Numbered from the whole stretch's first letter, positions 1,378 to 60,268 are shown. The stretch: 62,654 nucleotides of DNA, filler included, from Chrysochromulina tobinii (GCA_001275005.1; 9 parts of 9 records of this genome joined end to end with filler, not necessarily neighbours in it), one strand, 5' to 3'. The notes: a model not told the origin generated them from the sequence alone. Numbers and translations are program-made.

Positions 1378-1944
1378 TCATGCGACACTATGAGAGGTCA
1401 TCAGCGAGCCGAGCACCTGATGAGGGAGGCAATCAGAGGTCATCAGCGAGCCGAGCACCTGATGAGAGGGGCAATCAGAGGTCATCAGCAAGCCGAGCAC
1501 CGTGTTGAGTGCGAGCAGCTCAGAGAGCTGCACCACATCACGGCCGTAAATGTGCAGCCCCGCAAGCGAGAGTCGCGTTGCGCGCCCCTCCCAGTCGAGC
1601 ACGGGCAGCGGCGTCGACGAGAGCGTGAGCAGGTGCAGCCGCGCGTGCAGCCGCCTGCGGTGCACAGCTTGCGCGAGCTGCATCGAGGCAGATCCGGGTG
1701 GCGGCGGCGGCGTCATCGCCGCGTGCAGCGTCTCCCCCGCGCCGATTCGATGACCCACGTTCATCAGCAACGCGGCACTGTCTAAGACCAGCTGAGCAAG
1801 CTGCACCTCCGTCAGACCGATGCATGGGCGGTTGCTCACCTCCCATACCTCGGAGTCGGCTGCAGGCGCGGCGGTGGGAGCAGCGCTGGCGGCGACGGCG
1901 GCGCTGGTGGCGCCAGCGCGTCGCTTCTCTTCGCCCCAAGCCAT
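1378..1944 (-). CDS. Uncharacterised or fragmentary ORF whose 3' part runs into an intron-like repeat
   Basis: 188-aa ORF; the end (LSLAGLHIYGRDVVQLSELLALNT) is weakly LRR-like and is followed by the 42-bp repeat. Confidence 0.3.
   Translation of the reverse strand: MAWGEEKRRAGATSAAVAASAAPTAAPAADSEVWEVSNRPCIGLTEVQLAQLVLDSAALLMNVGHRIGAGETLHAAMTPPPPPGSASMQLAQAVHRRRLHARLHLLTLSSTPLPVLDWEGRATRLSLAGLHIYGRDVVQLSELLALNTVLGLLMTSDCPSHQVLGSLMTSDCLPHQVLGSLMTSHSVA
1393..1500 (-). repeat. 42-bp tandem repeat of the intron-associated GTGCTCGGCT...TGATTGCCTCCCTCATCAG unit (about 2.6 copies)
   Basis: Units at 1459-1500 and 1417-1458, partial unit at 1393-1416; each full unit starts GT and ends CAG on the minus strand. 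Confidence 0.85.
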
Positions 1945-1952
1945 TCGGGCGG

Positions 1953-2066
1953 GAACTGGATCGCGTTCTCAAAGGTGCGAAGACAAGCGGATTGCTTGAG
2001 CGTGATGAGCTTGAGGCCGTTGGCTTTCTCAATGTTGCGCACCCACTTGCTCGCTTGCTCTTTCAA
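1953..2066 (-). pseudogene. Isolated dynein heavy chain AAA5-region fragment
   Basis: QASKWVRNIEKANGLKLITLKQSACLRTFENAIQF resembles the QANKWIKNME...LRTLENAIQFG segment of dynein heavy chains. Confidence 0.75.
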
Positions 2067-2278
2067 TCATCAGAGGCCAGCGTGCACATTCCTCGCGTAC
2101 TGCTTCTTCCACGCCTGGGCCACCTTCGAGAGCGACGAGGCCGGCACCTCAACCCGTCGCACCCGCTCGAGAGCGTCGCTGGGGGAGGTCTCCCGACCGT
2201 ACATCGCTTCTCATCGCCACAGAAGGCGGGTGGGTGGCGGCGCCTTAATTTCCGCAATCAAAGACACACACGCACAGA

Positions 2279-2375
2279 TTCAGTTCAGTTCAGTACAGTT
2301 TCTTCGCGATCCCTCCACGCTCACTCCACAACCGTCTCAGAGGACGGCTCCGCTCCCCTCGGTCAACACAAGTAC
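2279..2375 (-). mobile_element. SINE/LINE-like 3' fragment with (CTGAA)n tail, copy 1
   Basis: About 90 bp nearly identical to 32426-32516; ends in a short-repeat tail on the minus strand; ACAGATTC occurs at both ends (2274-2281 and 2374-2381). Confidence 0.6.
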
Positions 2376-2716
2376 AGATTCGCACAGCACGGCACTGACC
2401 ACACATTTCACGGTTATCAGATATCACCCAGTCGAGAGTGTGCCTAGCCCAAGAACACCGCGAATCGAATCAACCGATGCATACCCGCAACAGATAATGA
2501 ATCGCACCACACCTGCTTCAACATGTTGCTCTAAAATTGGGAGCACTCCTCGAGCCGGTTGGACGTCGGGTAAGCAGACCCGGGGCGTCTTGAACGCTCC
2601 GGCTTGCTGCAACCGCCATGGAGCGCCTCCGCGTGCTGTCCGCGTGCACATCCTCTCACACCTCGAATATGTGAACGTGGCCCGACCCGGTCGCACAGGC
2701 CACCGCACGCCCCCTT

Positions 2717-4913
2717 ACGTGCGTCGCGATGCGCGAAGGGACTGCAGTCATCAGGCTGGAAGAGAGGCTCGCAAGGCGCTCACCGGTAGAAGCCGAGAAG
2801 ACTTCGCACGTGCGTTCCATCCCGCCGCAGAGGATGGCGTCTGCCCCTGTACAGTCCAGCTCACACCGGAGAGGAACGCCATCTCAGGGGCCATCTCGTA
2901 TCACAGGGGGCCATCAACAAGGACCGTCAGGGACTGGCAGGAGAGATCCTCCACAGCCACCAGTGGTTTCAAGAGGCCAGCTGAGGAGCACACACCTGCA
3001 GTCCAGATGGCCCGAAACGGGAGGAGCCAGCGCCCCGTGCTAGTACGGTGGTTGATGAGAGGTTCAGCCTCAGGCGCCGAGATTGGATCGCCCGTGATTC
3101 GATCGCCCAAGGGCAAGATTCGCAGGCGGTCGTCGAAGCACGTCACCGCAAGGCGGCCAGAGCCGTCGGGGGCCCATTCGGCTGCCTGCGTGGCCTTGGG
3201 TAGCGCGATCGTCACGACCGGACCTGCTCGCGCTCCCATTTTGCGCACGTCCCATACCTGTAGAGAGGATTCCGCGCTCGAGAACGTGACTCAGAATCCG
3301 TCAGGCCGCCATCAGCCGTGTGGCCGTGAGGGCGCTGGGCATCCACGGACCATGACGGACGCATCCGAGCTCGAGGAAGCCAAGAGCCAAGGGCGCCCAT
3401 GGTCATCCAGCGAGAGTGAGTTGATCTTCAGGCCATGGCTCCGCACCACCTTTTCGCAAACGAGACCCGTCCGGGGGTCCACAGCGCAAAGGCTCCCCTT
3501 GGTCGTCCCCAGCCACATCGTCGCCGCCGCACCATCCAACGCGAATGCGGACCACGCGTGCTCCGTTGAGACATGCAGCGTCGCAAAGGCGCGCATCTCC
3601 ACATTCAAGCAACGTACGGTGCCATCATATGAGGCGCAAAAGAGCGCCTCCGTTGAGCGCAGGCCCCACCGGAGCCCCGAGATGCCCTGGGGCACCTGAT
3701 GAGGGAAGCAATCAACAGGCCGTTGGATGCAGTCAGCTCAACGTGGCAAGCCGTATTGGCGGCGGATGCCCCTATACGCACCGGCCGATAAAGATGCACC
3801 CCATCGCTCGGCTTGCTCGCGTCTCGATTGGCGTTCCAGAAGCTCACATGTCCATCTGTGTCGGCAGCCGCCACGAGCAAGAGGTCGCTCCGTGGCTGCA
3901 GGCCATTGGGGAGGGGGTCGACGACCAACAATCATGGTCGTCGTGAGCACGAATGGCAGGATGTGGCAGGCAGTGGTCATCAATGGGGCACCGTGCCCCA
4001 AGACATGGAACTAGAGAGCAGCTCACCAAAGGGTGTGTCATCAGCGGCCATCAGCGGCCATCACGGGGCTCCACACACACGCGCGCGTACTCACATGGAA
4101 TTGGAGATGGACGACCGCCTTCTTGAGCACCTTGACCACCATGGCCTCGTGGAGCACGCAGCCGCTCAGCAACGCCGCCGCCCCCTTTTCGTGAGCAGAG
4201 ACGTCGCTCCCCGCAGCCTCTGCCGGTTGCAAGTCGCCTCCGAGCAACCGAAGGAGCTGGAGATCGCGCGCGTCGGGTTGGGGGAGAGCTGCCGCAGCCG
4301 CCCGCGCCGCCACGGACACACGCATCCTCAACGGGATATCCTCGTCGTCCTCGACGGCCGCCGCCGCCGCCGCCGCCGTGCTCTCGCCCTTGGGCAAGAT
4401 GACCGTCAGAGTTTTGCTCGCGACTCGACGAAAAATGGTTGGCAGGCGTGGATCAACCGCGCCACCCTCCGCTTCGGTCGCCATCACCCTGCCTGGTGGC
4501 ACCACCTCGCCGGCTGCAAGCTCGCTGCGAACACCGTCGGCAGGCTCCACTTCGTCGAGGCCGCTGTACTGCGGATCGTCGCCCTTGAGGCGGCCCGACG
4601 CGCGCGTCGGCGGCTCCGGCGAGGCGCGCCGCTTCCGTGAGGCACCCACAACACTCCGGGACCTGCCCGCCATGCACACCGCGTCCCTGGTCTCCAGCAA
4701 GCCAAGAGCTGCAAGCTTCAACTCGTTGCTGCGGATATTCTCCAGGCGCTCGAGTTCATACGCCGAGAGCCCACCGGATGCATTTGCGCTGGCCCTGCCA
4801 GGCACGGCGACGGAGGCGATCGGGCGCGTCAGCAGCTCTGGAAAGAGAGCATGACAGGGCGTGGGCACCGCGGGCGCCGCCACACGAACCTCCTTCCCGC
4901 CATAGCGAGACAC
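2717..4913 (-). CDS. WDR76: WD40 protein WDR76/CMR1 homolog, multi-exon (3' end not resolved)
   Basis: N-terminal LSAYELERLENIRSNELKLAALGL, then FH|PRSDLLLVAAADTDGHVSFWN, ASYDGTVR, SSDASVM|VWDVRK, HRTSTGRWLLPFRAIW and MTAVPSRIATH. GT-AG introns at about 3900-4095, 3696-3781, 3258-3350 and 2847-2995 join the frames. Confidence 0.8.
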
Positions 4914-5222
4914 GTGGTATTTCTCTTCAGTGTGAACGTTAACACGACAGACGCGACAGCCGGTGCTACGGCACTGTTACTGCCCGCTCAGAATACACAC
5001 ACCTTACATGACCCCGGTGTGCGCTCGTACGGTACCGGTAAGTTTGACGAACCGGAAAAAAAGAAACGAACCGGTAACCCATGATTAGGTTCCTAGTCTC
5101 GGATCTGACACTCCGCCCCCCCCCCCCCCCGCGGTTACAGGCGCGCCGCGCCGTGTTTCCAAATTAGGCACTTTCAGCCTCCTCCCAAAGGAAGGCCCGA
5201 CACTCGCCGCGGAAAATGGGCG

Positions 5223-18121: not shown

Positions 18122-18285
18122 CGCGGCTGGCGACCGCCGACCTTTCACAGCCTGGTTTTCGGACTCCCACTAGAAGTAGTCAAATGGTCCAATTTTAGGT
18201 CCTTCCAGCCCTTCACGAGGTCCTTCACGCCTCTCCCACGTCGCACTGCCTCCCCGCAACTCCCCCAAGCCCCTCCTCAATCCCG

Positions 18286-21200
18286 ATGGCAGGCAATCCG
18301 CAGCGCCCGGCCTTGGGCCGGGTCTTCGCGCCTGCAGACGACCTCACGTACGTCATCGCCATCAGCCCCGGAAAGCCTTTCCTCGTCATCGACCGGCAGA
18401 CGGGTACAGCTTCGATCGTTGACGCATCAAAGCTCGACACCCTCATCGGCCCGCCAACGTCGCGTGCGCGATCACTTCGCATGGACGCGGTGGTCGGCCT
18501 GGTCACGTTCCCCGACGACCGCTACCTCGTGGTCGTCGGCGAGAGCGCGACCAAGCCTGTCGCCAGCGAGCGTGGCATGTTGCAGGTGCCATACATCACC
18601 AAGGTTGTCTTCCTTGCGCTCAAGCCGCCGAGTGGGGGGGAGCCGGGCTCGCCCGGTGGAGCCGGCGGCGAGGACCCGTACTCGCCCGAGGCGAGCCTAA
18701 CCGCGCTCAGTGCCAAGCAGCGTGGCTACCTCAAGGACTTTCTGGAGGCGGGCGACGTGTTCCTCGCACACGAGGAGCGCGGCGCATTCACGCACACGCT
18801 GCAGCGGCGCGCGGCGCGGCGCGAGGCGCTGCAGAGCGCGCCGCCCTCGCTCGCGGACGCGGACGAACGCTTCGTGTGGAACGCGCGCGCGCTCGCGCCG
18901 CTCGCCAAGGCGGGCGCGGGCGAGTGGCTCACTCCGCTCATGCAGGGCAACGTGTGCACGGAGCAGGTGCTGCTGCCTGGAGACGGCGTGCTCACCGCGT
19001 CGCTCGTGGCGCGCCGCTCGTGCGAGCATGCGGGCACACGCCTCAAGACGCGCGGGATCAATGACAGTGGCGCCGCCGCCAACTGCGTCGAGCTCGAGCA
19101 GATCCTTCATATGAAGCTCCGGCGGCAGGCGGTGACCTCGCTCGTCCAGATTCGCGGCTCGGTGCCCGTCTTCTGGGAGCAGCGGACAAAGCTCGGTACG
19201 GTGAACCCGAAGCCGCGCGTGAGCCGCGTGACCGAGCTCACGACGCCCGCGCTGCGCGAGCACCTCGACGGGCTGCAGGCGCTCTACGGCAAGGTGATCG
19301 TGCTCTCGCTCCTCGATCAGCGCGGCGACGAAACCGAGCTCGCCACGGCGCTGGCCACGTGTCTCGAGGCTCTCGAGGAGCGAATCTCCGCGAGCGTGCG
19401 GTACGCCGCCTTCGACTTCCACCATGCGGCCAAGGCGACCAGCCGCGGCGACGCGTGCCGCACGCTGCTGCAGCGCCTCTCGACCGAGCATGCCGACGCG
19501 CACCCGGCCGCACACGGCTACTTTGCGATGCGGGTGAACGAGGCCGAGGCGGCGGCAGGGACCGAGAGCACGACGGCACCGGTGAGCACGCAGCGCGGCA
19601 TCGTGCGCACCAACTGCCTCGACTGCCTCAACCGCACCAACATGGCGCAGACAGTGCTCGGTTTGCAGTCGGCGACGGCACAGCTGCGCGCGCTCGGGAC
19701 TGCTTGTGAACTGCCCGCGGCGGCGAACACGCCCGCGCTCGAGACGAACTTGCATGCGGCGCTCCGCAAGCTGTGGACCGAGGCGGGAGATGTGATCTCG
19801 GTCCAGTACACGGGCACGAGCAATTTGAGCAAGGGCTCCGGCATCCTGGGCGAGGACGCGAGCGAGAAGAAAAAGTCCCTCTTCGAAAAGGCGCGCGGCG
19901 CCGTCGAGAAGGGTGTGAAGACAGCCCAGCGCTTCGTCAATGAGCAGTTCCTCGAGGACACGCGGCAGGCGGCGATCGACACGCTCCTCGGCGCGGGCTC
20001 GGAGCGCTTGCGCCGCGTCTCGTCCGCCGTCGGTGGCGCCGAGGCGGCCGGCGTCGAGCCAGTCACCTTACTGGTGGGTACCTGGAACAACAACGGCAAG
20101 GTCGGCTCGGCCGACGAGGTGCAGGCGTGGCTGCAGGCGTGCTCGACCAAGGTGTCGCGCGTGCCGCCCTCGGACGAGAGTGCACGGCTCTTGGCCGAGG
20201 AACCGCCCGGCGTGTGCATCCTCGGCTTTCAGGAGTTCGTCTCGTTGGATGCGAAGAATCTGATGCTCAAGGACCACGAAGAGCGTCGTCGCGAGTGCCG
20301 CGCGCGCGTACTCGCCGTCCTCCAGGACCTCCATGGCGAGCGCTACGTCGAGGTGGGCGCCGAGCAAATGTTTGGCGTCTTTCTACTCGTGTACGTGCGC
20401 CCGCGCCTCGCCGCGTTCGTGCGTGGCGTGCACGCCGAGGTGGTGAAGCTGGGTTTCGGCTCGGACTCGCTCGGGATCAAAGCGGGCAACAAGGGCGGCT
20501 TAGCGGTGCGCCTGGACCTCTTCGGTGCATCGGTCTGCTTCATCAACTCGCACCTACCCGCGGGCCAGTCGCACCCGGAAGAGCGCAACGAAACCTACCA
20601 CGAGATCCTCAAGGGTCTCAAGAGCGGATTCGCCGCGTGCCGCGGGGGCCCCCACCCGCCGCCCCTTGAGCACGATCTGTGTGTCTGGCTGGGCGATCTC
20701 AACTACCGGCTCGAAGGTCCCAACGAGGAGGTGCGACGCATCGTGGCCGATGCGGCCTCGATGCCGGCGCCACAGGCCGCCAAGGAGCTGCAGGCCATGC
20801 TCCAGTACGATCAGCTCACGATCGCGAAGGCGAGCGGCGCCGCGTTTGACGAATTCGTAGAGGCGCCCCTCGAGTTCGCGCCGACGTATAAGTATGACGC
20901 GGGCACCCAAGTCTACGATACGAGCGAGAAGGCGCGGGTGCCGTCGTGGACCGACCGAGTGCTCTGGCGCGAGGGCAGTCGCTCCGAGGTCAAGCAGGTG
21001 GCGTGCTTGGCGTACGACTCGGCCAACTCCGTGCTTGTCTCGGACCATAAGCCAGTCGCGGCGCTGCTGCTCTGGAACCCGGGCAAGGGCAAGGCCGCCT
21101 TGAGCTCGACGGCTGCCCCGAGCAACGTGTCCGCGCGCTCGGAGGAGGGTGTGGATCCCGGTATGGATCCCTTGCCTAATTTGGATCTCTTGGGGGGCGA

Positions 21201-21810
21201 CGACGACGGCGATGGCGGCGGCGGCAACGAGGACGGCCAGGTCGATTTACTCGACGGTCTGTTTGGCGGCGGCGACAGCCCCGGCCAAGGCACAGCGGCC
21301 GGCGGCTTCGGGAGCTCCTCCGACTTCGTGCCTGCCTTCCCGACCTCATCCTCCGACTTCGGCGGCAGCATCAGCAGCAGCACCGGCGCCGCGGCCCCCA
21401 CCGCCGGCACACCCAGATTCCCACAGGCGCCTTTGGGTTTCGGCGAGTCTTCGGCCTTTGGTGACTCATCCGCATTCGGGGCGCCCGCGCCGCGGCCACT
21501 GGCTCCGATGCCGGCCGCAGCGCCTGTCCCGGCGGGCGTATCTTCCATGACGGCGGGACTCTCCTCGATGACTTTCGGGGTGACGCCGAGCGCGCCTCTG
21601 TCGGCCAACGACTTTGGCGCCGTGATGGGCGCCGGCATGTCTCCAATGGGCGGCATGGGTATGGGGGGCGGAATGGGGGGCATGGGGGGCATGCCGCCGA
21701 TGGGCGCTATGGGCGGCGGCATGGGCGGCGGCATGGGAATGGGTGCCGGCATGGGCCGCATGGGCGGCGGCATGGGAATGGGTGCCGGCATGGTGGGTGG
21801 CATGCCTCCG

Positions 21811-21842
<32 letters not shown>

Positions 21843-21960
21843 TGGCATGCCGCCGATGGGCGCCTTGCCTTCCTCCATGTTTGCCACCCCGGCCACCCCG
21901 GCGCCCGCCCCCGCCCCCGCCGCGCCAGACCCATTTGCGAGCCTCGCAAAATTGCCTTGA
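18286..21960 (+). CDS. Synaptojanin-like phosphoinositide phosphatase (SAC1 domain, inositol 5-phosphatase domain, Gly/Met/Pro-rich tail)
   Basis: SAC1 motifs RFVWN, ARRSCEHAGTR, RGSVPVFWEQ, RTNCLDCLNRTN, QYTGT; 5-phosphatase motifs GTWN, GFQE, GNKGG, NSHL, GDLNYR, PTYKYD, PSWTDRVL, SDHKPV. Confidence 0.92.
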
Positions 21961-33191: not shown

Positions 33192-35076
33192 TCAAGTCAA
33201 AGCTAGCATGAAGGCTCTCATTAAGGCTCTCCCACCGAGGCTCATGAGGCCGGCAGGCAGCTCGATTGACGTCAATGAGGAGCAGCCAGAGAAGGCGCGC
33301 TCACCGAGGCTCGTGGGACCGGCAGGCAGCTTGATCGATGTCATCGAGGAGCAGCCAGAGAAGGCCTCCTTACCGAGGCTCGTGAGGCCTGCGGGCAGCT
33401 CAATCGACGTCATCGAGGAGCAGCCATAGAAGGCGTGACCACCAATGCTCGTGAGTCCAGCGGGGAGCGTGATCGACGTCAACGAGGAGCAGCCATTGAA
33501 GGCCTCCTCACCGAGGCTCGTGAGGCCGGCAGGCAGCTCGATCGACGTCAATGAGGAGCAGCCATGGAAGGCGCACCCACTGATGCTCGTGAGGCCTGCG
33601 GGCAGCTCGATCGACGTCATCGAGGAGCAGCCATAGAAGGCGCACCCACTGATGCTTGTGAGGCCGGCGGGCAGCTCGATCGACGTCATCGAGGAGCAGT
33701 GAGCGAAGGCGTCATCGCCGATGCTTGTGAGGCCGGAGGGCAGCTCGATCAACGTCAACGAAGAGCAGCCATCGAAGGTGAACCCACCGAGGCTCGTGAG
33801 GCCGGCGGGCAGTGCGATCGACGTCAACGAGGAGCAGTCACAGAAGGCGAAACTGCCGATGCTTGTGAGGCCGGCGGGCAGCTCAATCGACGTCAACGAG
33901 GAGCAGCCAAAGAAGGCACCCTCACCGAGGCTCGTGAGGCCGGCAGGCAGCGCGATCGACGTCATCGAGGAACAGCCCTCGAAGGCGCTCCTACCGATGC
34001 TCGTGAGGCCGGCGGGCAGCGCGATCGACGTCATCGACGTGTCGTCGCGGAACGCGTTCGCCGGCACGCGCGCCTCGCCGTCGCGCAGCACGCACGCGGC
34101 GAGCAGCACCTCCATCGACGCCTCGCCCTCGCCGCGGATGCACGCGCGCACCCCTGCCATCGGATACGGTTGCGTACCATCTTCATATTCTTCCGATCCA
34201 TCTGAAGACGCCACGCGCCTCAGCGTGGCCACGTCCACCTCGAAGCCGCCCAGCCCCGTCACCTTTGCCAGGTTGGGCAGCCAGCGCGACGCGTCGGCCG
34301 CGTCGGCGAAGAGGCGACCGGTGGTGCGGCTGTCCGAGAGGTCGAGCTCGGTCACCTCGACGAGGTTGCTCGTGAGCGGCAGGCCGATGCGTGCGCACAG
34401 CCGCGTGCACAGGACGCGCCGCGCCCGCGCGCGCCACGCGAGGCTCACGCCCTTGAGCGCGCGCAGCGTCGGAACGTCAGCGTCCGCGAGGGCGTCCTCG
34501 AGGGCGTCCTCGTTGACGAGCTGCGTCGAGAGCCAGCACACGGGCGCTGGCGGTGTGGGTGCGTCGGCCGCTCGCGGTGCCGTGGCGTCGTGCTGAGCGT
34601 CGTGCGTGTAAATCGGCTCCTTCGTCGCCACCTGCCGCTCCGCCTCGGTGGGGAAGTCGCTCGCGACACCCAGCAGCCGCCCGAGCTCCGGGCCACTCTT
34701 GCCGGCGAGGTGGCCGGTGCACAGGGAACGCGAGAGGAGGCGGCGAAGCTCGACGTCCACGTCGAGAAAGTGCGCGCCGTGCAACAGCTGCGCGAGGTGC
34801 GCGAGCGAGCACCCCTCCAACGCCCCGCCATTTTCCGCACCGCCCTCGGCGACGCGCGAGAGCGTGCGGAGCGCAGCCGCAGGCACCAGAGTGGCGAACG
34901 CCCCCTCGGCGCCGCCCGTGTCGCTCACCCAGTTGGCGAGCGCCGCCGATCGCGCCGCGGCCGAACGGGACCACAACCTCCTCGCCCTCGGCGCTTCGCG
35001 CCCTCACATCGCCGTCGTCGCCGTCGCCGCCGATGTCATCACCGCCGCCGGCGTCGGCGACCCGACATCGCTTCAT
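33192..35076 (-). CDS. Skp1-like, F-box-like and BspA-type (LRR_5) leucine-rich repeat protein; 2-nt frameshift near 34975
   Basis: About 12 repeats of 23 aa, S(L/M)TSIxLPAGLTS(I/L)GxxAFxxCS; upstream LLHGAHFLDV...LAGKSGPELGRLLGVASDFPTEAE resembles the Skp1 dimerisation domain; NEDALEDAL...LRALKGVSLAWRARA resembles an F-box. Confidence 0.75.
33231..34040 (-). repeat. 69-bp tandem array encoding BspA LRRs
   Basis: Recurring gaggagcagcc...gaaggc...gctcgtgaggccggc unit with 69-nt period. Confidence 0.92.
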
Positions 35077-36845: not shown

Positions 36846-36850
36846 GGCCC

Positions 36851-37816: not shown

Positions 37817-40713
37817 ATGCTGTCGAACCTGTACCCCCCTGGTCGTCCGCGCATGGGGGGCACTCCGGGAGTCTTCCTGATCATGATGGTGGGCTTCAGC
37901 AGCGCACAGTTCTTCACCGTCACCGGCCCATGCACCGTCGATCCCGCCGCCCCAAACTGCATTCGCTCGCCCAACCATCCGGCGAATTACCCCGTCAGCC
38001 TGACGTGCTCCATCACGCCGACTTCGCTCGCCATCGGAAGTAGCATGACAGCAACCGCCTTTTCAACGCAAACGCTTGACAGACTCAGCTTGCCCAACGC
38101 GGCAGGGACGCTCGTGCCCTTCAGCGGGCTAGGGTTACTTTTCGGACCTGCCAATTTCACGTTGGGCAATCGGTCGATCAGGTGGTTTTCGGACGCTGTC
38201 GCAACTGTTTCTACGGGCTGGCGAGTGTGCTCAAACCCGCCTGCGCCGCCGCCCAGCGCACAGTACTTCACCGTCTCCACCGGCCTTTGCACCGTCGATC
38301 CCTATGCCCCAAACTGCATTCTCTCGCCCAACTTTCCGTTCAATTACTTCACCGGAGCTGGATCCACCAGCATAACGTGCGACATCAGGCCGACTTCGCT
38401 CGCCATCGGAAGTAGCATGACAGCAACCTCCTTTTCAACGCAATTGAACTTTGACAGGCTCCGGTTGCCCAACACGGCAGGGGCGCTCGTGATCTTCACC
38501 GGGACACTGCTAACAAACGGACCTTCCGATTTCACGTTGGGCAATGGGTCGATCTTTTGGTCTTCGGACACTGTAACTGTTTCTACGGGCTGGCGAGTGT
38601 GCTCAAACCCGCCGCCGCCTCCTTCGCCTCCGAGGACTCCACCGCCGCCTCCGCTTCCGCCTCTCGCGCCGCCGCCCAGCGGAATGTACTACAACGTCTC
38701 CGCCGGCCTTTGCACCGTCGATCCCGCCGCCCCAAACTGCATTCGCTCGCCCAACTTTCCGGCGAATTACGCCGTCAGCCAGACGTGCTCCATCACGCCG
38801 ACTTCGCTCGCCATCGGAAGTAGCATGACAGCAACCGCCTTTTCAACGCAAACGCTTGACAGACTCAGCTTGCCCATCGCGGCAGGGACGCTCGTGCCCT
38901 TCAGCGGGCTAGGGTTACTTTTCGGACCCGCCAATTTCACGTTGGGCAATCGGTCGATCAGGTGGTTTTCGGACGCTGTCGCAACTGTTTCTACGGGCTG
39001 GCGAGTGTGCTCAAACCCGCCTGCGCCGCCGCCCAGCGCACAGTACTTCACCGTCTCCACCGGCCTTTGCACCGTCGATCCCTACGCCCCAAACTGCATT
39101 CGCTCGCCCAACTTTCCGTTCAATTACTTCACCGGTACATCATCCACCATTAATCCGGCGTGCACCATCACGCCGACTTCGCTCGCCATCGGAAGTAGCA
39201 TGACAGCCACCGCCTTTTCAACGGAGCTGAACTATGACTTTCTCAGAATGTATAACACGGTAGGGGCGCTCGTGCCCTTTACCGGGACACTGCTCTCAAA
39301 CGGACCTTCCGCTTTCACGTTGGGCACGGGGCCGATCCTGTGGTATTCGGACACTTCGGGTGTTAATACGGGCTGGCGAGTGTGCTCAAACCCGCCGCCG
39401 CCTCGTGCGCCGCCGCCTCGGCCTTTTCCGCCTTTTCCACCGCCTCCGCCTCGTGCGCCGAACTCACAGTACTTTACCGTCTCCACCGGCCCATGCACCG
39501 TGGATCCCGCCGCCCCCAACTGCATTCGCTCGCCCAACTTTCCGGCGAATTACGCCAACAGCCAGACGTGCTCCATCACGCCGTCTTCGCTCGCCCTCGG
39601 AAGTAGCATGACAGCCACCGCCTTTTCAACGGAGCTGAACTATGACTTTCTCAGAATGTATAACATGGCAGGGACGCTCGTGCCCTTCAGCGGGACACTG
39701 CTCTCAAACGGACCTTCCGCTTTCACGTTGGGCAAGGGGTCGATCACGTGGACTTCGGACAGTTCAGGTGTGTCTACGGGCTGGCGAGTGTGCTCAAACC
39801 CGCCTCCGCCTCCGACTCCGCCTCGTGCGCCGCCTCCGCCGCCTCCGCCTCGTGCGCCGCCGCCGCCGCCTCGCGCGCCGCCTCCGCCGCCGATGTCGCC
39901 TTTCCCGCCGATGTCGCCCCAGCTCGATCCGGGCGAGTGCGCTGTCGTCTACTACAAGGCCACAAACCCCGATGAGATTGGGATCGTGCTCTTCGATCAT
40001 CTCCTTCCCGGCGACACGATCTACATCACCGACAACTCCGTTGTTGGAGGGTGCAGCGAGAATTGCCACTGGGCCTCCGACGGTTATTGCGACGATGGTG
40101 GCCCCGGCGCCCAGTTTACAGATTGTGTCAGTGGCACCGACTGCACCGATTGCGGCGCCCGCCCTGTAACTTGGTCTAACACTGAGGGGCACATGATGTA
40201 TACGGCCCCCACGCGGAGGGGCCCCGGCACCGTCCTCAATATAAGCAACTTTGTGGCGGCCCCTAGCCCTAACCCCTTTGCATTGGCTTTGGACGGCGAC
40301 GAGCTCATCGTCTACCGGATTGGTCTGGGCCAAACCCGGGCCACCCCCACATTCCTATGCGGCCTCTGCAGCAAGAGTGCAGCGGTTAACGCTACAGCTC
40401 ACCCGTGCGGCTTTGACAACATCCCAGGAATCTCAAGCTACCCTCCGGGCGTCTGGAACTACTTCCACACTGCCACCCCGTCTGGCACTATTTCCTTCGC
40501 CGGTCAACAGAACCAGTGGATCTACAACTCGAGCGCGACGGGTGCGGCGGGGGGGTATGCCCCAACGTCGGGCTCCAGGGCTCAGCTGCTTGCTGCCATC
40601 AGCACCCGCGCCAACTGGTTCTTCAGCAACACACAGTTTTTACCCATTCAATCCGTCGTCCCCGCCAATGGGTATCGCATCACCAACCTCCCTCCGTCTT
40701 TGCCGCCCCCCCC
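37817..40713 (+). CDS. Secreted or cell-surface protein with five CUB-like repeats, polyproline linkers and a CDDGGPG Cys module (3' truncated)
   Basis: Five repeats of C-TVDP-APNCI-SPN-P-NY...C...W-SD...GWRVC; hydrophobic leader GVFLIMMVGFSSA; CHWASDGYCDDGGPGAQFTDCVSGTDCTDCG. Confidence 0.8.
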
Positions 40714-42533: not shown

Positions 42534-42576
42534 TAAGCTATACGAGCTGCTCTCAAGTCCCAGTCCGGTCACGGCC

Positions 42577-46073: not shown

Positions 46074-49000
46074 TCACCAGTAGTCGGTATTGATTTCGCG
46101 CCTTCCGAACCCACTGTCGTCCGCCTTGCGTTTGCCAGGGCGCCCGCCTGCCGCTCCTGCCGCCGCTGCGCCCGCTGCGCCCGCTGCGCCGTCGGCACCC
46201 TCCGCCTTGGCGGCGCTTGGCTCCTCTCGCGTGCGGCTCTCCGCCTCCAGCGCGTCCTTCTCGATGAGGTTGATGATGCCGAGCGCCTCGGCGTCCATCT
46301 TGACGCCCGCCTTCGCGAGCCGCTGCTGCCAGTTCTGGAGGCGCGCGTAAGGCACCTTGACGCCCACAATGCGCGTCCCGGCCGAGAGACGCACGCGCGT
46401 CACGCGCATGGGCTTCTTGTCCCCTCGGCCGTTGAGCACGACAGTGAGCTCGTCAAGGGCTTTCCACAGCGGAAGGATCGAGCCCGCGATGACCGCCTCC
46501 GTAACGAACTTGCTGCCGTAGCGGCTCTTGCACGAGCACGGCGGCGCGTGCCAACACCGGGCGCTGTCCGTGTGCATGGCAGTCCACTCGCGTTGTGCGC
46601 GCGCCTTGGCTCTCTCATCGCCGAGGTCGTACCTGATGACGGGGGCAATCGGAAGCAATTAGCGGCGATCACATGGGCAATCTTGATGGTCCTCTCATCC
46701 CGAGGTCGTACCTGGTGTACGTGCGCCGTTCCTCGAGCGCCGCTCGCTGGATAGTCCAAGTATAGCCGAAATTGGGGTGAATCAGCTTATAGATCTCATA
46801 GTGTGGATTGTGCTGCGCCTCACCCGACTGGTACGGCTTGCGGATGGCGACGTAGTGGTGCCGGCGTTGCGTCGCTCCGCGTGTCGAGTATGGCGCGACG
46901 TCGTGGTAGATGCCGTTGATGTGCGCACCGGCGTGGCCCTCGGCGGCCTCGCGCGCATTCGCCGCGTCGAGCTCCGCGAGCGCCTTGGACCATTCACACC
47001 CGCGGTCGAGCTGCAGCGTGTACAGGGTGGTGCGCGCCTTCGTGGTCGGGTCCGTGTAGAAGGGCACCGGCTCGTCCTTGTAAGCAATCGAGGTGGCCCT
47101 CATATCGACGACGCCGTCGTCGAAGCGGCCCTCAGACTTGTCCTTCGCAATTTCGTCCTCAAAGAGGGCGTTGAAGTGCGCAAAGCATCGGCCCTGGAGG
47201 CGGACGGTGAGCCCCAGCAGCCGATTGAGGAACGTCTTCACCGACGGGAGATCCTTCCTCTTGCCCCGCGGGCCACCCTGACCAGCCGCGACCCGGTCGG
47301 CATAGTCGAGCGTCAGGTCGATCCCCACAATCTGAAGCGCCGTCTCGAGCTCTTCACAGTGCTCGTTCCATGGCGTGAGGTCGCCCGTGTCCGCCGCCAA
47401 GCGCGCCGCCTCGGCGCCTAGGACGCGCTCGAGCAGCAGCTTCATGCGCCCAGCCCCAAAGGAGTGAGTGCGGATGGAATCGACGAGCCGCTCGAGCGCG
47501 CGGCGGCCGTACTGGGTCTGGAAATCGAAGCTGGACAGGTTGGCTGCATCCGCCGCGCGACGATCCCCCTTAGTGAGGGCGCCGAGGTGCTGTAACCGCT
47601 TGGCGAGCTGCGCCGCAAAGCGGCGCTCGCCGCCGAGGGTCGTCATGAGGAGTTTGAAGTCCGGCGCGGAGGTCTGGTTGGATCGATGGGTGCGACCGAG
47701 CTGCTGGAGCGCCTCGTCGGCCGACCATGGCAGCTCGAGTGTGATGTGGATGCGCTTGGCGCGGTTGGCAAAGCGCCGGTCCGCGTGCAGCGAGATGCCG
47801 CTCGAGGCTGCCTCCGAGATGATGGCGACCATCTTCTGGCCGTTCATGAAGGCCTCCTTCTCGGCCATGTTGACGCGTGCCACCGTCACGTCGAGCTCCT
47901 TGGCTCGCTTGACCATGCGCGCACGCCCGTCGGCCGCATCGTACACGAGCTTCATCTTGCGCCCGGTCAGCTCTGCGACCTTCTCAGTGCCGCCGAGCGC
48001 GTGGATGAGTTGGTCGAGTGGGTTGTCGGGCAGCGAGAGCGACGCCGCCTCGCGAAGCAGCTCCTCCTTGAGACCGCGCAACGAGCCGCTTAGGAGCCGC
48101 TGCCTAGCCGCCGCGCCCACCTCGAGCCCCTGCTCGAACCCCTCGCCACCGCCCGCGTCACCGCCCGCGCCGCCGCCCTCGCCGCCGCCCGCGCCGCCGC
48201 CCGCGCCGCCGACGCCGTCCGCCAAGAGCGGATCCGTGGCGCTCAGCCCGAGGGCGCGGGCGAGCTCGGAGTGCGGCAGCGACGCAACCTCCTCGCCAGC
48301 CGCGGCCAGCAGGTGGTAGTGGCAAGCGACGGTGCGTGCATAGACGGCCTCGACGAGCGCCGCCTTGCCTGTCGGCTTGGCCTCGCCGTGCACGCCCAGG
48401 TCGAAGAGCCGCCGGCGTAGCTGCGTCGTGCCGAGCGCCCAGATGCCCTTGTAGCTCTCTAGCAGCTTACGCAGCCTGTCGTCGCGCTGCTTGGGCAGCT
48501 TGTACTCCGACGTGATGAAGGCGCCGACCGCGAGTACGAGCATCGTGGGCGAGTACGTCTTGAACTTACGAGGCGCCCCCTCTATCGCCGCGTGCTTCGC
48601 CTCACTCGCAGCCATCGAGAGCTCCTCGTCCGAGTCGTCCGAATCGCTCATCACGGCGCGCTTCGCGGCCGCCGAGGCGGATGAGGACGAGCCCGCGGCG
48701 CCGGCCAGACCACCGCCTAGCGAGGAGGCAGACGATGCGGCAGCGGCCGCCTTCTGCTTAGGCACCGACCTCTTTGTTGACGGTCGCCTCGGTGCATAGA
48801 CATCGCCGAGGGCGTCATGGCCCTCGTCCTCGTCGGCGAGCATCGGTTCGTCCGGGTCCGCGTCGTCGTCCTCTTCCTTGTCGCCACGCGTCGGAAACTG
48901 GGTCTCCAGCAGGTTCTCGATGATCGCATAGAGCCCCGCAAAGTCTTCGAGGCCCTCTTCGCCCGCCTCCTTGAGTGCCTCGACCATGCGCGCCTCGCCC

Positions 49001-52801: not shown

Positions 52802-53824
52802 GGTAGCGAAATGGCGCGCGGAGGCGGAGAGCCATCGGAGCACTGATTACCTCTGATTGCCTGTGATTGCCTCCCTCATCAGGTAGCGAGATGGCGCGCG
52901 GAGGCGGAGAGCCATCGGAGCACGATGTCAAAATGCTCCGAGCGGCTGGCGAGCGTCGTGCCGGTGCGCCAAGGGCTCCACGGGGACGGACGCCCCCCGC
53001 CGCTGCCGCTCCTGATCGAGAAGATGCTCGACAAGTACCGCGGGCTCGGGGGCACGCTCGAGCAGATGCACGCGGAGCTCCAGTCGGCGAGCGCATCGCT
53101 CGCGCAGCTGCAGGCTGAGCTGGACAAGGCTGAGGACCACGGCAAGGCGCAGATACGCGAGCTCTCGCGCGAGCTCAAGGCTCAGCTGCGCGCGCAACGG
53201 TCGACGCTCGTCGCTGTCGCCCTCTCGTCTATGCAGCAGCTGCGCACCCACCTGGTGCATGCCTTGGCCGGCCTGCGGGAGGTGCCCTGGACTCGTCAGG
53301 CGGCGTCCCAAGGCACCACTCGGCTCGGATGGAACCCGGCGCGGCGCTGCTGGTTTGTGCAGCCGATGGGACGCGTGGACGAGATCCTGCTGCGCTTGGA
53401 GATGCCGCCGCTCCAGACGACGGGCGTGCCCGTGCCTGCCCCAACCACGCCGCGCCGTCTTGAGCTCAAGACCGTGCCTGCGACACGCCCGACGACGTCG
53501 GAGGGGTCGACGCGTCCTGGCGGCAAAGACTCGCTCGTGATGCTCGCGCCGCCCAAACTTGGAAACGCCGAGCAGCGCCCGGGCTGGACCATGCCGACGG
53601 CGCCCTTTCGCGAGACGGACGAGTTCTCGCACCGGCCGCATGCGACGCGACCGAGCTCGCCGCCGAGCGGCGTCGCGAGCGCGCGCGGCTGGTCAGGCGC
53701 GCCGCCCACCGGCGCTGGCTTGCTTGGCGCGGCCCGGGGCGTGGGCGCCGGCGCCGGAGGAGGACAACCCGCGCCGCCACCCATCGGGCGGCCGGTGCCC
53801 TCGGCCGTTTTCGGAATGAGGTGA
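52802..53824 (+). CDS. 3' part of an uncharacterised coiled-coil protein (intron 52803-52882)
   Basis: About 300-aa open frame with heptad region LEQMHAELQSASASLAQLQAEL, preceded by a CAG acceptor. Confidence 0.55.
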
Positions 53825-56175: not shown

Positions 56176-56453
56176 GGTTGCCCGCGCGGCGCGCGCGCAG
56201 CGCGGAAGCGGCCCAAAGTCGAAGCCTGATTTCCCTTCTGAGCACTGAAGCGACAAAGATCGTACGAATGCATGCGGCTTGCGGGAGTTCTGGTCGAAGT
56301 TCAGGGCGAGCCGGGTTCCAAAAACTGACAGCCGCTGAGAGGCAGGCTATCAGACACGCCGGGAGCCGAGGACGCGGTTCACACACAAGACACATACACT
56401 GCTGATCACGATGCGCATGTGGTCGGATCTCGCACATGGAGTCCTCCCCGCTC

Positions 56454-59400
56454 TCATGCGAGGCCGCTCGCCTCGTCTTCCGCGGCGCCCCGTTGCAGCT
56501 CGTCGTCGCCCTCCTCCGCCTCCTCCATCTCCTCGACATGGAGGCGCAGCAGCCGGAGCTCATACGTCGACGCCGCCGCCTCGAGCGCTCGGCGCCCCCA
56601 CCGGCTGCACGCGAGCCTCCGGAGGAGGTGCACGTACGTATGCGCGGCGACCGCCCCGACTCCCCCTCGCCTGACGAGGCTCGCGGCCTCGGGAAGCAGC
56701 CCGAGCAAGGCCGAGAGGAGGGCGAGCAGCGCGTCCGTGCTCGCGCGCGCCTTCGCGGCACACAGCACCAGCTGGTGCACCAAGTTGGCGTACCCGCCCA
56801 CGAGCTCGTCCGAGGGGCACTGGAGCAGCGGCGTGCGCAGGAGGGGCTGCGCGCGCTCGGTGATGCACTCGATCGCGTGCTCGAGGAGCTCTGCCGGCCC
56901 CTCCTCCATCAGTGTGAACAGCGCCTGCAGCACACCGGGCAGGCGCGCGCCCCCGACGGCGCGCTGCGTGTGAAGGAGGGTGCCCGCTGTGAAATGGAAT
57001 CCGTGCACCAGGGCGTCGAGCGCCTCGCGAGGTGCGATCTCCCGCGCGCGCCAGGCCTCGGCCTGCTCGGTGAGCAGCCGTTCCACAGCGACCAGGTGCC
57101 GTGTCGAGAAGACGTGGGCGCGTCGGCGCAGGGCCGCGTTGTCGGCGAGGACCTCGTCCAACGCCCACTGCCCGCCTGCGATCTCCGCGGAGGTGCGATC
57201 TCCGATCGCCGATGCGGAGGGAGCGGCGGCGCCCCCATCGCTCGTCGCGGCTGTGTCCCGAGTGCCCTCGGCTCGCTCGCCCGGCTGTGAGCATGGGGTG
57301 TGAACATGGGCTCGCTCGCCCGGCTCCAAAGGGCACTCGTTCTCGTCAGGGCACTCGTTCTCTTGACGGCGCTCATAGAAGAGCAGGTAGGGGGTGGCGA
57401 GCGAGCCCGCCTCGACGCTGCAAGCCTCCGCCTCGCTCGCCTCGCGCACGCTCGAGTCATTAAAGAGGAGCCAACGGCCGAGCGTGCTCGGCACAGCGCC
57501 GGCGCCGCGCTCGCCACTCGATGCCGCCGCCTCTCCCGCCGCCGCCGGCTTGGCGCGCTGCTGACCGGAGGTCGCCGACGCAGCGTCGGCACCGAGCCCA
57601 GGTTCACACCCCATGTTCACAGCTGGGTCGGCACCGAGCCCGAGCCCCGCGCGCCCCTTGGTGCGCTCCCGCACGTATGAGTAGTAGTGGCCATTCTCCG
57701 AGTCGCCTAGATGCACGACCACCCCCACAAGCGCGTACGTGAAGCCGTCGCCGCCTGTGCCCTCGCCGCCCGCGCCCTCGCCGCCCTCGCCCTCGCCGCC
57801 GCCAGCAAGGAAGCGCGGGCCGAGGTGCAGGGTAGGGGGGAAGGCGCAGGCGTCGAAGACCTTGAGCTTGCACATCGCGTCGTAGTCGAACCGGAAGCGC
57901 TTGAGCTGCACGATGAGGGTGTGGGGCAGCTTGCCCAGGCGCGTCCGCTTGATCGCATCGACCGTCTGACCGGCGCTCGTCTGGTAGCCGCGGATGGGCT
58001 CCGCCATCACGAAGCGCTCGAGCGCCGTCTCGAGCGTCGAGCAGCCCTCGATCTCGAGCGGGAGCACGCGGAAGCTCTCGCGCGTCTCCGACCTCGAGGT
58101 CTCACGCACGAGGGCGGGGGGCGCCCAGGACGGCGCCGACGGATGCCCGCCGCCCTCTACCGGCGCCGTCGTGGGCGCCGCCTCTTCCCACAGGATCTGC
58201 TGCACGAGGGTGCCTCCAAATACGCGGTCGAGGAGCTTGCCCTGCCCAAAGTCATCCTCGAGGCGCTGGAAGAGCGTGTGCAGGTACTCATCCGCATCCC
58301 GCTGCTCCCACGCCGAGAGGCACTCGCCATCGAGGTCCCGAAACGCCGAGCAGAAGGCGGTTGGCTCGAAGGCCACGTGCTCGGAGGTCGAGAGGTACGC
58401 GAGCAGCTGCTGCAGCTGCTCGAACATCGGGGCGTACCGCTTCGCCTCGGAGGGGTGTGCACGCAGCAGCCCGGCCGTCAGGCTCGGCACCATGTGGAGC
58501 TGCTGCATGCACGAGGCCATGTAGCACGTGCACCCGAGGTTGGCGAGGCCCACGTACCTGATGAGGGAGGCAATCCGAGGTCATCCTCCAAGGTCATCAG
58601 AGGTCATCATCCGAGGTCATCCGAGGTCATCATCCGAGGCCATCCGAGGTCATCCTCCAAGGTCATCAGAGGTCATCATCCGAGGTCATCCGAGGTCATC
58701 ATCCGAGGTCATCCGAGGTCATCATCCGAGGTCATCCGAGGTCATCATCCGAGGCCATCCGAGGTCATCCTCCAAGGTCATCCGAGGTCATCATCCGAGG
58801 TCATCCGAGGTCATCATCCGAGGTCATCCGAGGTAGGCGAGGCCCACGTACCCAGCGGGCGCGCACGTTGGCTCAGTCTCAATCTCCCACATCATCTCCC
58901 ACCCGTCGGCCGCACCCCCCTCGACGCCGTGGACGCGCAAGAGTGCCTCGAGCGCCGCCCCAGCGAGCCCGCCCCCACCCTCGCACAGAACGAGTAGCAG
59001 CTCGTAGGCACCCACCTCGGTCTGCGTCGATGGTCGATGGATCGCGCGGCACAGCGGCGAGGCGCCCGCGAGAGCGCGCGGCATGAGCGGCGGCGCGACC
59101 GGCAGCAGCAGCACGTCGATGAGCAGCGCGAGCACGCCCGGCACGACGCGGCTCCGTAGCGGCGCGTGGCGGGTGGCGAGTGCTCGCAACAGCGCGAGCA
59201 GGCCGAGCACGAACGCGTCGGCGGGCGCGCCGTCTTGGGCGGAGCCGTCTGCGTCGGCGGCGACGGTATGAGCGGTGTCGTGGGCGCCCGGCGCGGCGGC
59301 GGCGGCGGCGGCGGCGCTCATGACTGCCGGCGCCCACGACGGCGCCCTTCGCCTCGACGCCCTGACGACCCGCCTCGCCCGTCGTGAGCGCCGTCGTGAG

Positions 59401-60268
59401 CGCCTCGGCGGTCCGAAGAGCTCTGAGTAGCGCGCCCAGCGCCGCGTCAAAGAACGCCTCGGTGGTGGCGATGCTCATGCCGCCCGCCGCCTCGCCGCCC
59501 GCCCCCTCGTGCATCGGCGTGAGGCGCAGCGCGTGGAGCAGCAGCGAGAAGTACGCACCGGCGCGCGTCGGGTGCGAATCAGCCGCCGGGAGCAGCGCAC
59601 TGAGCTGGAGCACGAGGGTCGCAAAGGCGCGTGTGGGCTCGGCCGCCGCCGCCGCCCATTCCGAGAGCGCCTCGGCCGTTTGAGATCGCACCTACATGCA
59701 ATCAGTGGCAATCAGCAGCAATCAGTGGCAATCAGTGGCAATCAGCAGCAATCAGAGCGCCTCGGCCGTTTGAGATCGCACCTCGTCCGCCGCCGCGCCG
59801 AGCAGCACCGCGCGCAGCCACGGCGCCGTCGTGGGCGCACGCAGCCAGCTGAGCAGGTCGATGGCGGCGGGCTCCACCGCCGAGGCGGCGGCGGGCGCGT
59901 CGTGCCGGGCGGGCGCGTCGTGCCGGGCGTGCGCGTCATGCCGGGCGTACGCGTCGGCCGCAGCCGCGCCGGGGCCGAGAGCGCATCCGAGGAGCCGCAG
60001 GCTCGCATCCGCCAATCCCGCCGCCTCAGCCTCCACCGCCATCCCCAGCCCCGACGCGCCCGCGACGGCGCCGGCGCTCGGGCGGCGGTGCGCGAGCAGA
60101 GAGAGGGCCGCCATCGCTGCCTGGAGCAGTCGGGGGCGCTCGAGCGACGCGCATGCGGCGCGCAGCAGCGAGGGATCCGCGGCGAGGGTCTGCACCAGGA
60201 GCTGCTGGTCTGCACGCGCTTCCTTTGATCGGGGCCACTCGGGGGGCGGACACTCGGGGGCGTCGGGG
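56454..60268 (-). CDS. Ubiquitin-specific protease, USP9/24/34-like (5' truncated; introns 59692-59781 and 58558-58851)
   Basis: Cys box GYVGLANLGCTCYM, QRDADEY, LKRFRFDY, His box GVVVHLG...GHYYSY, WLLFND, YLLFYER. Confidence 0.9.
58574..58830 (+). repeat. Intronic (CCGAGGTCAT[CAT])n minisatellite
   Basis: Over 20 alternating 10/13-bp units. Confidence 0.95.

Follow-up and report, generated by a model that had tools for sequence, protein, structure and literature searches.

Many introns of the haptophyte Chrysochromulina tobinii show a duplicate-filler-duplicate anatomy, in which the fillers are made of intron repeat tracts and of intron 3' or 5' ends from at least two sequence families. The repeated unit is a duplication plus a piece of an existing intron and not one element, since a second cassette, mirror introns, tracts in the sense orientation only and rare fillers common to same-gene neighbours all occur. 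We propose, with about even confidence, that these introns are born when staggered breaks are repaired with an existing intron as template, which in most cases lies in cis.

The window, i.e. the whole N-spaced stretch of 62,654 nt that was analysed, contains six intron-like inserts on three contigs, which an initial annotation had listed and which we confirmed as GT..AG intervals on the expected strands (Table 1; introns are named by their first coordinate). As had been claimed, the four clearest cases (46633, 52803, 58558 and 59692) open with a 20-41 nt copy of the start of the next exon.

Table 1. Introns of the window and their parts
Feature	Coordinates	Strand	Length	Phase	Exon copy	Remarks
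Class I intron	58558..58851	-	294 nt	2		USP (ubiquitin-specific protease) gene, Cys-box
Intronic duplicate of 58558	58828..58851	-	24 nt		58534-58557	1 mismatch; source of GT donor
Family-A tail of 58558	58558..58575	-	18 nt			exact; ends at acceptor AG
Class I intron	59692..59781	-	90 nt	0		duplicate, six repeats and variant end GATTGCATGTAG
Duplicate of 59692	59754-59781	-	28 nt		59664-59691	perfect
Class I intron	52803..52882	+	80 nt			duplicate, repeats and exact tail (52865-52882)
Duplicate of 52803	52803-52843	+	41 nt		52883-52923	1 mismatch
Older class I intron	46633..46711	-	79 nt	2		strawberry-notch-like gene; repeats and tail diverged
Duplicate of 46633	46692-46711	-	~20 nt		46612-46632	one deletion
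Intron	3696..3781	-	86 nt	0		WD40-like gene; 1-mismatch tail; duplicate decayed
Array-type intron	1388..1500	-	113 nt			LRR-like gene; two tail-bearing 42-nt units of identical design (1459-1500, 1417-1458) and a third unit, 1388-1416 (29 nt)

Intron 58558 is composed of the exon duplicate, about 25 repeats of ten to thirteen nt and the 18-nt tail, and it splits the Cys-box of the USP between PAG and YVGLANLGCTCYM (Pfam UCH, E 3e-18). It probably shares one gene with intron 59692, 840 nt away on the same strand, so that the inserts do not all lie in unrelated genes as had been supposed. Introns 58558 and 52803 carry the exact tail, but intron 59692 ends in GATTGCATGTAG and not in the proposed common TCATCAG acceptor. 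Intron 52803 abuts a contig edge, with its upstream exon outside the contig. That splicing restores the reading frame held true for introns 3696, 46633, 58558 and 59692, where long open frames lie on both sides after splicing and the frames derived from codon usage agree, but not for an insert proposed at 1417-1500, the removal of which leads to a stop after 12 codons. This segment is part of the array 1388-1500; its supposed duplicate has no exon counterpart because the frame is restored only by removing all 113 nt.

Splicing of intron 58558 out of mRNA is read indirectly from RNA contigs of three runs, which end at 58541, the leftmost placement of the 294-nt skip and thus the predicted place. 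For the other family members, reading frame and collinearity with homologues identify them as predicted spliceosomal introns, and frames derived separately for the two sides agree in 29 of 35 singletons, with one third expected. An independent DNA run (X4, distinct from the run marked as a possible source) spans the duplicates, tails and junctions of introns 52803, 58558 and 59692, and the same introns recur at ~99% identity in independent assemblies and in other metagenome records. A candidate intron-less orthologue of the gene with intron 46633 (P0004) was rejected as probably transcript-derived and therefore supports only the 46633 junction; on 12-kb contigs one member of the cluster ends 30 codons upstream.

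All statistics come from the window and from 134 loci (750,818 nt, with some redundancy) that were picked out by the exact tail. These loci hold 216 distinct exact-tail sites: related introns are numerous and lie at unrelated positions that look specific to the lineage, as expected of introners in the broad sense. Alignment of intron 5' ends to the downstream exon, which the initial annotation had suggested as a check, gave ungapped duplicates (score at least 12) at 64 of the 157 terminal tail sites followed by GT or GC and at none of 565 permuted pairings, so that direct repeats flank the introns above background, matching intron gain by double-strand break (DSB) repair. With gaps allowed the counts were 78/148 and 2/148, and 70 of the 148 tail-bearing introns (about 45%) had no clear duplicate; some introns consist of a shared head and tail without any. 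No other tail directly precedes 47 of the 64 duplicate-bearing sites, and 40 of these 47 follow an exonic G. Duplicate length varies continuously from 13 to 55 nt, and some duplicates are as short as 2-8 nt; 26 of the 64 duplicates are perfect and many others differ from the exon copy, some by changes towards GT donors. Microhomology at the junction, another earlier claim, stood up in modest form: it reaches at least 3 nt in 20/64 against an expectation of 13.5%, in a test slightly biased upward, and is absent in another 20/64. Longer duplicates go with shorter fillers (rho -0.54, n=57) and total intron length falls within 60-100 nt in 45/57, the anticorrelation fitting a length floor but also a remodelling that conserves length.

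The reading of the initial annotation is partly supported. The data back a genome-wide intron-generating process with long and variable duplications, no terminal inverted repeats (TIRs), a variable repeat number and a donor taken from the duplicated G/GT, but not one system for which the TCATCAG acceptor would be diagnostic. Family B, an unrelated and non-repetitive 3' cassette, has the same kind of duplicate (29/66 against 2/424, array units included). In mirror introns (class II) the end of the upstream exon is duplicated instead and the tail is absent. An automated, uncurated scan for duplicate-filler-duplicate structures (n=205) returned 56 of class I, 20 of class II, 34 two-sided ones and 95 without exact register, and at least three different 3' ends are in use. 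Existing splice sites are often spanned by tandem duplications, some units of which have no usable donor. A head plus cassette of ~50 nt recurs near-identically on several unlinked contigs, and therefore copying in trans or a master exists.

The fillers track neighbours in the same gene. Tracts always lie in gene sense: of 142 tracts flanked by same-sense tracts, all 142 are same-sense themselves, and antisense tracts were not seen in the sampled loci. Rare filler variants are common to neighbouring introns of one gene in 9/47 pairs against 1.5%: at least 8 identical nt upstream of the tail were found in 9/47 same-strand pairs at <1 kb, 4/39 at 1-4 kb and 0/15 beyond, in 0/57 opposite-strand pairs and in 362/23,662 cross-locus pairs, these pairs not being independent. 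After removal of more redundancy, sharing in cis was 9/85 against 221/22,351. Rare fillers of 21-52 nt are common to single pairs in which each intron has its own near-perfect duplicate (L028, L123, L034). Tract similarity falls with distance (0.128, 0.076, 0.055 and 0.023, against 0.047 between contigs), and opposite-strand tracts <2 kb apart are not less similar (0.09, n=13). Family B gave no cis excess at the threshold used (0/26 against 1/1,285). In locus L001 perfect duplicates beside an older intron have fillers unlike that intron, and therefore simple slippage is insufficient. The common sequence stops at the acceptor: it extends at least 3 nt past the AG in 3/14 cis pairs against a background of 27%, so that microhomology running past the AG of the donor intron was not above background in these 14 pairs.

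According to the mechanism that we propose, a staggered DNA break would arise in a transcribed gene, a stretch of 20-60 bases from an existing intron, frequently one of the same gene, would be copied into the gap, and the overhang of 13-55 bases would end up duplicated on both sides. In class I a duplicate starting with G/GT (or GC) would become the donor and the filler would bring the 3' end; in the mirror class II a duplicate ending in AG would become the acceptor; and a duplicate spanning AG/GT would give both splice sites. Selection would retain those events that give clean splicing and a length of at least about 60 nt, and events at existing splice sites, being neutral, would accumulate as compound introns. 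Slippage would later alter the number of the 10-nt repeats, each of which contains CTGAT, presumably a branch-point-like word. Exchange between duplicates would yield arrays and could also delete an intron precisely. The template may have been intron RNA or pre-mRNA, which we slightly favour, or resected DNA of the same orientation. A bolder version, less likely than not, is that of transposon-free, self-propagating introns: the excised intron RNA (or pre-mRNA) would serve as template when staggered breaks of its own gene are mended, and introns would spread contagiously along intron-bearing genes, each birth being recorded by a duplicate of 13-55 nt that would also allow self-amplification or precise erasure. 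Such a process would have built most introns here and would be invisible to current introner screens.

Judged from sequence comparison with distant homologues, the intron positions look lineage-specific. Five intron sites of a CoA-transferase gene are uninterrupted in five homologues on contigs of 4.8-12.8 kb (68-76% identical), and the coding sequence of a USP homologue (8.3 kb contig) likewise runs without a break through the position of intron 58558. The presence/absence comparison suggested earlier revealed no empty allele in four aligned haplotype pairs containing family introns and no read-through of the 58558 site among 13 USP cluster members; since no empty allele was found, we infer recent de novo gain rather than having caught it. 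Haplotypes differ in repeat number, the changes amounting to whole units.

The main rival of the break-repair reading, somewhat unlikely in our view, is the remodelling of older introns, where one end would be replaced by exon sequence and the other kept native, either via a single polymerase switch between a spliced copy (cDNA or an intron-less template) and the locus or via expansion and contraction of an array across a splice site. It explains why one junction lies exactly at the splice site and accounts for class I and the mirror class II together; the tandem duplications across splice sites, the narrow range of total length, the lack of an empty allele and the introns with head and tail alone also speak for it. 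However, rare fillers common to neighbours with fresh duplicates would have to be explained separately, by ectopic conversion, and the remodelling view also has to cope with perfect duplicates whose fillers are unlike the adjoining old intron and with positions absent from homologues, albeit distant ones. Closest to the view of the initial annotation, and unlikely, is target-primed reverse transcription (TPRT) by a non-autonomous, SINE-like non-LTR element or of excised intron RNA by a LINE-type reverse transcriptase (RT), which predicts a fixed 3' end, 5' truncation with microhomology and a variable target-site duplication (TSD). Class I fits, with a fixed end beside the downstream duplicate, a duplicate of variable length and microhomology at the other junction; the head plus cassette in trans agrees as well, and non-LTR introners are on record in the accessible part of one report (PMC12130899). 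The mirror and two-sided classes, however, lack a fixed 3' end, several 3' ends are in use, and the absence of antisense copies, the cis bias, the lack of poly(A) and the lack of a visible RT ORF in 750 kb count against it.

De novo addition of 10-nt repeats at break ends by a telomerase-like enzyme, which would contain a short RNA template, is very improbable. It would account for the variable repeat number and the primer-like microhomology at the end of the duplicate, but repeat variants are specific to introns and genes and change by whole units between haplotypes, family B does not consist of repeats and Rfam yielded no match in 143 kb. The dedicated RT or telomerase-like RNA carrying the repeat complement that had been envisaged likewise found no backing in the DNA examined, a small part of the genome: RT-like motifs in 3 of 2,431 ORFs were by eye not RT, and the empty Rfam search implies no hammerhead or snoRNA, despite a CTGATGA word. 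Three candidates with endonuclease motifs were rejected as a synaptojanin-like phosphatase or as having no match, and viral contigs gave 0 matches. Hardly to be expected is a classical, MITE-like DNA-transposon introner that decayed later. Its donor would come from the duplicate and its acceptor from the insert, as in Polarella classes 4/5/6/8/10, and in some copies the end of the tail is the reverse complement of one repeat variant (a 7-bp internal stem), but this stem was significant in only one of five folds and the hairpin or TIR idea was dropped. DNA-transposon introners would show similarity at both intron ends, a short fixed TSD and TIRs; here one end is a locus-specific exon copy (in 64/157, plus the mirror class), inserts are cut at variable points at their 5' ends, TIRs are lacking, only one orientation occurs and the duplicates are not fixed at 3-8 nt, the perfect long ones largely refuting this origin. 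Gain by tandem genomic duplication would involve local exon sequence only, and here the filler is common to other introns; reverse splicing would copy whole introns without target duplication, and here partial copies come with long duplicates. Assembly artefacts of collapsed short repeats, scarcely conceivable, are suggested by the way repeats break short-read contigs, as for 52803 at its contig edge, and by the odd array 1388-1500; against them stand the junctions covered by the independent DNA run, the recurrence of the introns in independent assemblies and metagenome records, and the divergence of many duplicates from their exon copies. The first unbiased repeat scan was dominated by coding repeats.

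Tandem repeats of 10-11 bp are reportedly abundant in the introns of Emiliania huxleyi (Read et al. 2013), and Roy and Irimia are said to have proposed RT template switching for intron transposition. The following comparisons refer to the accessible parts of the sources cited. Introner-like elements of Polarella glacialis (classes 4/5 and 6/8/10) and Symbiodinium are whole elements with fixed 4- or 8-nt TSDs; those of Symbiodinium carry inverted repeats, and some elements occur in both orientations (Roy et al., 10.1101/2020.10.14.339549). As here, the duplicated target provides the 5' splice site with its 5' end and the insert provides the 3' site, with thousands of related introns; unlike there, our duplicates are variable, the inserts are partial and in sense only, a mirror class exists and fillers are shared in cis. 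TIR-less introners also occur in haptophytes, in Chrysochromulina MAGs and E. huxleyi (10.1101/2022.06.06.494994/PMC9860276; PMC12130899). E. huxleyi fam24 (5 members, mechanism unknown, '10bp terminal direct repeats') likewise co-opts the 5' site and carries the 3' site, whereas the Chrysochromulina family figured has 4-bp TSDs and carries its own 5' site (PMC9860276; PMC12130899). The pipeline of Gozashti et al. 2022 demanded similarity at both intron ends (PMC9860276) and would therefore have filtered the present introns out; C. tobinii has 0 introner families in Gozashti et al. 2025 (PMC12130899), and three motifs looked for are absent from the searched part of the Gozashti supplement text (PMC9860276, PMC12130899).

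Sporadic intron gain is described, in the accessible text, by tandem duplication of an AGGT-containing exon and by DSB repair with direct repeats in Daphnia (PMC3443670). There, too, the duplicated exon gives splice sites and staggered-break repair leaves direct repeats around a filler, but the repeats are short and the filler is not shared or is mitochondrial or unknown (PMC3443670), whereas here it is intron-derived and provides the missing signals in a genome-wide process. Intron transposition (Micromonas IEs, fungal ILEs and same-gene duplications, near-identical intron pairs of Oikopleura; PMC3879977, PMC3609843, PMC4122922, each in its accessible part) resembles our case in sense-only copies in transcribed regions and in same-gene copies, but produces whole-intron copies without long exon duplication, in cis a few pairs per genome, while here the copy covers only a portion of an intron, with target duplication making up the remainder. 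We found no description of the present intron class in the literature searched, mostly outside subscription journals.

The origin of new spliceosomal introns is a long-standing question. Gain on the scale of a genome has hitherto been linked to transposons (introners), and for duplication, break repair and the copying of introns within a gene only sporadic cases were known. The signatures of these three coincide here in hundreds of sampled introns. As one intron end is locus-specific, introner screens requiring similarity at both ends would miss the class, which may exist in other genomes scored introner-free. Divergence of the duplicates provides a built-in clock and donor-recipient pairs can be identified, in an organism that is in culture and sequenced at both the DNA and the RNA level, so that whether RNA or DNA templates the birth of introns can be tested directly.

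The window, with a GC content of 55-73% across its nine N-joined contigs, contains six stretches that the initial annotation had described as introns or intron-like inserts of common design, and sequence inspection at these places agreed with that description. Four of these introns, named here by start coordinate, begin by repeating the start of the following exon, over 41 nt in 52803, 28 nt in 59692, 24 nt in 58558, and about 20 nt in 46633. The proposed restoration of the reading frame also held, as exact excision of 3696, 46633, 58558, and 59692 resulted in long open frames with codon-usage frames agreeing on both sides. The reading of 1417-1500 as an intron had to be amended: this stretch belongs to an array of three units, and the frame is restored only by removing 1388-1500. 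Another intron-like stretch, located in the WD40-like gene interrupted by 3696 (3940-4100, minus strand), contains three family repeats and has neither a tail, i.e. the 18-nt acceptor end of the family (family A), nor a duplicate.

The Cys-box of a ubiquitin-specific protease (USP) is split by the 58558 intron; once 58558 and 46633 are spliced out, the predicted products can be aligned to homologues with no gap at the junction. In three RNA runs, contigs (records of 528, 227, and 418 nt) match up to 58541, with 47, 43, and 65 letters left over. As the exon and the intron copy are identical over exactly 16 nt starting at 58542, the 294-nt skip that splicing predicts can be placed no further left than 58541. 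With the intron retained, the match would have run on past this position, which is indirect evidence that 58558 is spliced. Moreover, an independent DNA run, X4, spans duplicates, tails, and junctions of all three introns on this contig (52803, 58558, and 59692). Between the 59692 and 58558 introns the USP-like gene shows one change of the codon-usage frame (59300-59340, minus strand), probably a 1-nt assembly indel as X4 has one gap in this stretch.

Among the matches listed, 143 stretches carry the exact tail, drawn from several culture assemblies as well as other metagenome records; the whole metagenome collection is estimated to contain 3,100, and a search of viral contigs gave 0 matches. 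Of 216 distinct sites, 129 have GT directly after the tail, 37 have GC, and 13 have GG. Permitting up to three mismatches in the tail gave 157 terminal sites followed by GT or GC, and 64 of them have an ungapped duplicate of 13-55 nt, compared to 0 of 565 permutations. Forty-seven of these 64 sites have no other tail directly before them, 40 lying after G and 21 after AG. Separately inferred frames of the two flanks concur in 29 of 35 such singletons, the remaining 12 of the 47 being left out due to short or repeat-containing flanks. Gapped alignment yielded duplicates in 78 of 148 sites (vs. 2 of 148), the duplicate being short, decayed, or absent in the remainder. Perfect duplicates make up 26 of the 64, the average divergence being about 4% (70/1,686 positions), and several intron copies exhibit a change of the donor from GC to GT. 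The length is 60-100 nt in 45 of 57 introns, and the length of the duplicate is anticorrelated with that of the filler, the intron-derived piece between the two copies.

An unbiased scan revealed a second 3' cassette, family B, consisting of GCATGCAAGTGCTCACCACGGCGCC, pyrimidines, and CACAG, with the same kind of duplicates (29/66 vs. 2/424), as well as additional end variants with such duplicates. In the window, a motif resembling the family-B cassette is located at 60787-60820 (plus strand), with neither acceptor nor duplicate nearby. In a mirror class (class II) the repeats follow the donor, and the last 13-40 nt duplicate the exon upstream, this duplicate providing the AG. An automated, uncurated scan for duplicate-filler-duplicate arrangements gave 205 cases, i.e. 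56 of class I (next-exon duplicate as donor), 20 of class II, 34 two-sided, and 95 without exact register, many of the latter being array-internal, decayed, or events at an older intron's donor. Nearly all introns visible in four intron-dense genes, coding for a family A DNA polymerase, a filamin-like protein, a CoA-transferase, and a thiolase, are made of these repeats, and many are compound. The basic unit is thus a tandem duplication into which a piece of intron has been inserted. The polymerase gene (L066 1240-5500, minus strand), whose Pol theta/nu-like motifs were recognised by eye, has about 17 introns of the duplicate-filler class, several of them in conserved motifs. At the end of contig L001 (1-130), part of an exon of the gene located there recurs in inverted orientation, with duplicate, filler, and tail; its forward counterpart, at a distance of about 400 nt, shows a tail-like site and no intron there. 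The two are possibly an empty/filled pair or a chimeric join.

Neighbouring introns on one strand have common sequence upstream of the tail much more often than unlinked introns do. Such sequence was shared by 9 of 47 same-strand pairs less than 1 kb apart, by 4 of 39 at 1-4 kb, and by 0 of 15 beyond, as well as by 0 of 57 opposite-strand and 362 of 23,662 cross-locus pairs. With more overlaps dropped, sharing was found in 9 of 85 same-strand neighbours vs. 221 of 22,351 unlinked pairs; in family B a neighbour excess was not seen (0/26 vs. 1/1,285). Two introns of locus L028, 590 nt apart, contain an identical rare 52-nt filler between duplicates that differ, yet are each perfect. Common filler within a locus also occurs in L123 (42 nt) and L034 (21 and 26 nt), and in culture contigs tract similarity declines with distance. 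Sharing in trans takes the form of a head of about 50 nt plus cassette, repeated on several unlinked contigs. Tracts flanked by same-sense neighbours have the same sense in 142 of 142 cases, and adjacent tract pairs less than 1 kb apart agree in orientation in 202 of 203. The sequence common to neighbouring introns ends at the acceptor, and microhomology is modestly enriched at duplicate-filler junctions.

We infer that repair of staggered breaks by copying existing introns is the simplest single account, as it covers three classes, several cassettes, the cis bias, compound introns, and arrays. The break would be staggered and leave 3' overhangs; one end would then prime synthesis on an existing intron, take over part of its sequence, and be rejoined, thereby duplicating the overhang, and selection would retain outcomes able to splice. 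We lean towards an RNA template since orientation is strictly sense despite copying in trans and copying halts at the acceptor; same-orientation DNA switching after resection is a live alternative source of the filler. TPRT of a SINE-like or intron RNA is a less probable but live rival; the DNA examined, a small part of the genome, showed neither an RT nor a structured RNA.

The duplicate may record either the birth of an intron or later remodelling, and a remodelling of old introns is likewise a live rival, less probable than birth by break repair and slightly more so than TPRT. Repeat number differs within the species in four aligned haplotype pairs, and a search of the same pairs for an empty site found none; likewise, 0 of 13 USP variants read through the 58558 site. 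When five family introns are removed from the CoA-transferase gene of L065, the product is a protein of 513 aa to which eight homologues are collinear. Of these homologues, five are uninterrupted ORFs on contigs of 4.8-12.8 kb (68-76% identity). Similarly, the 58558 site lacks an interruption in a USP homologue from a contig of 8.3 kb. Judged by their length, these contigs would be genomic. The introns were thus likely gained after the split from relatives with uninterrupted homologues.

The introns resemble introners of Polarella/Symbiodinium in that the donor is recruited from the duplicate, but they do not have the defining features of those introners (bioRxiv 10.1101/2020.10.14.339549). 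A 2022 introner screen required similarity at both ends (PMC9860276), and a 2025 screen lists 0 introner families for C. tobinii; the nearest catalogued haptophyte entry is an E. huxleyi family of five members that has 10-bp terminal direct repeats and a mechanism listed as unknown (PMC12130899). Tandem duplication and break repair are each described as sporadic routes of intron gain (PMC3443670), as is same-gene intron copying (PMC3609843, PMC4122922). No description of the combination of duplication, break-repair signature, and same-gene intron copying was found in the literature searched, which lies mostly outside subscription journals. The observation is real and is a new variation on known intron-gain routes at genome scale; beyond the footprint itself, the analysis adds a second cassette, a mirror class, templates in cis, and a rule on orientation.

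Other features of the window and of loci ascertained by the exact tail
Feature	Location	Strand	Remarks
69-nt (23-codon) coding repeat array, LRR-like	window 33233-34037		paralogue at L065 5093-5889, 84% identical
About four coding repeats of 372-447 nt	window 37996-39900		proline/alanine-rich linkers between repeats
Intron-less 1,253-codon frame, synaptojanin-like	window 18199-21957	+	SacI and endonuclease/phosphatase domain matches
Dispersed AT-rich repeat of ~300 nt, MITE-like	L021 14417-14697, L065 7317-7615		inverted-looking termini; unrelated to the introns
ORF with weak Pfam match to ADP-ribosyltransferase family	L009 15498-16052	+	adjoins protein kinase domain

Long genes without these introns, such as the synaptojanin-like frame, contrast with the intron-dense genes of the loci. 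A stretch paralogous to the ORF of L009 is present in L029.
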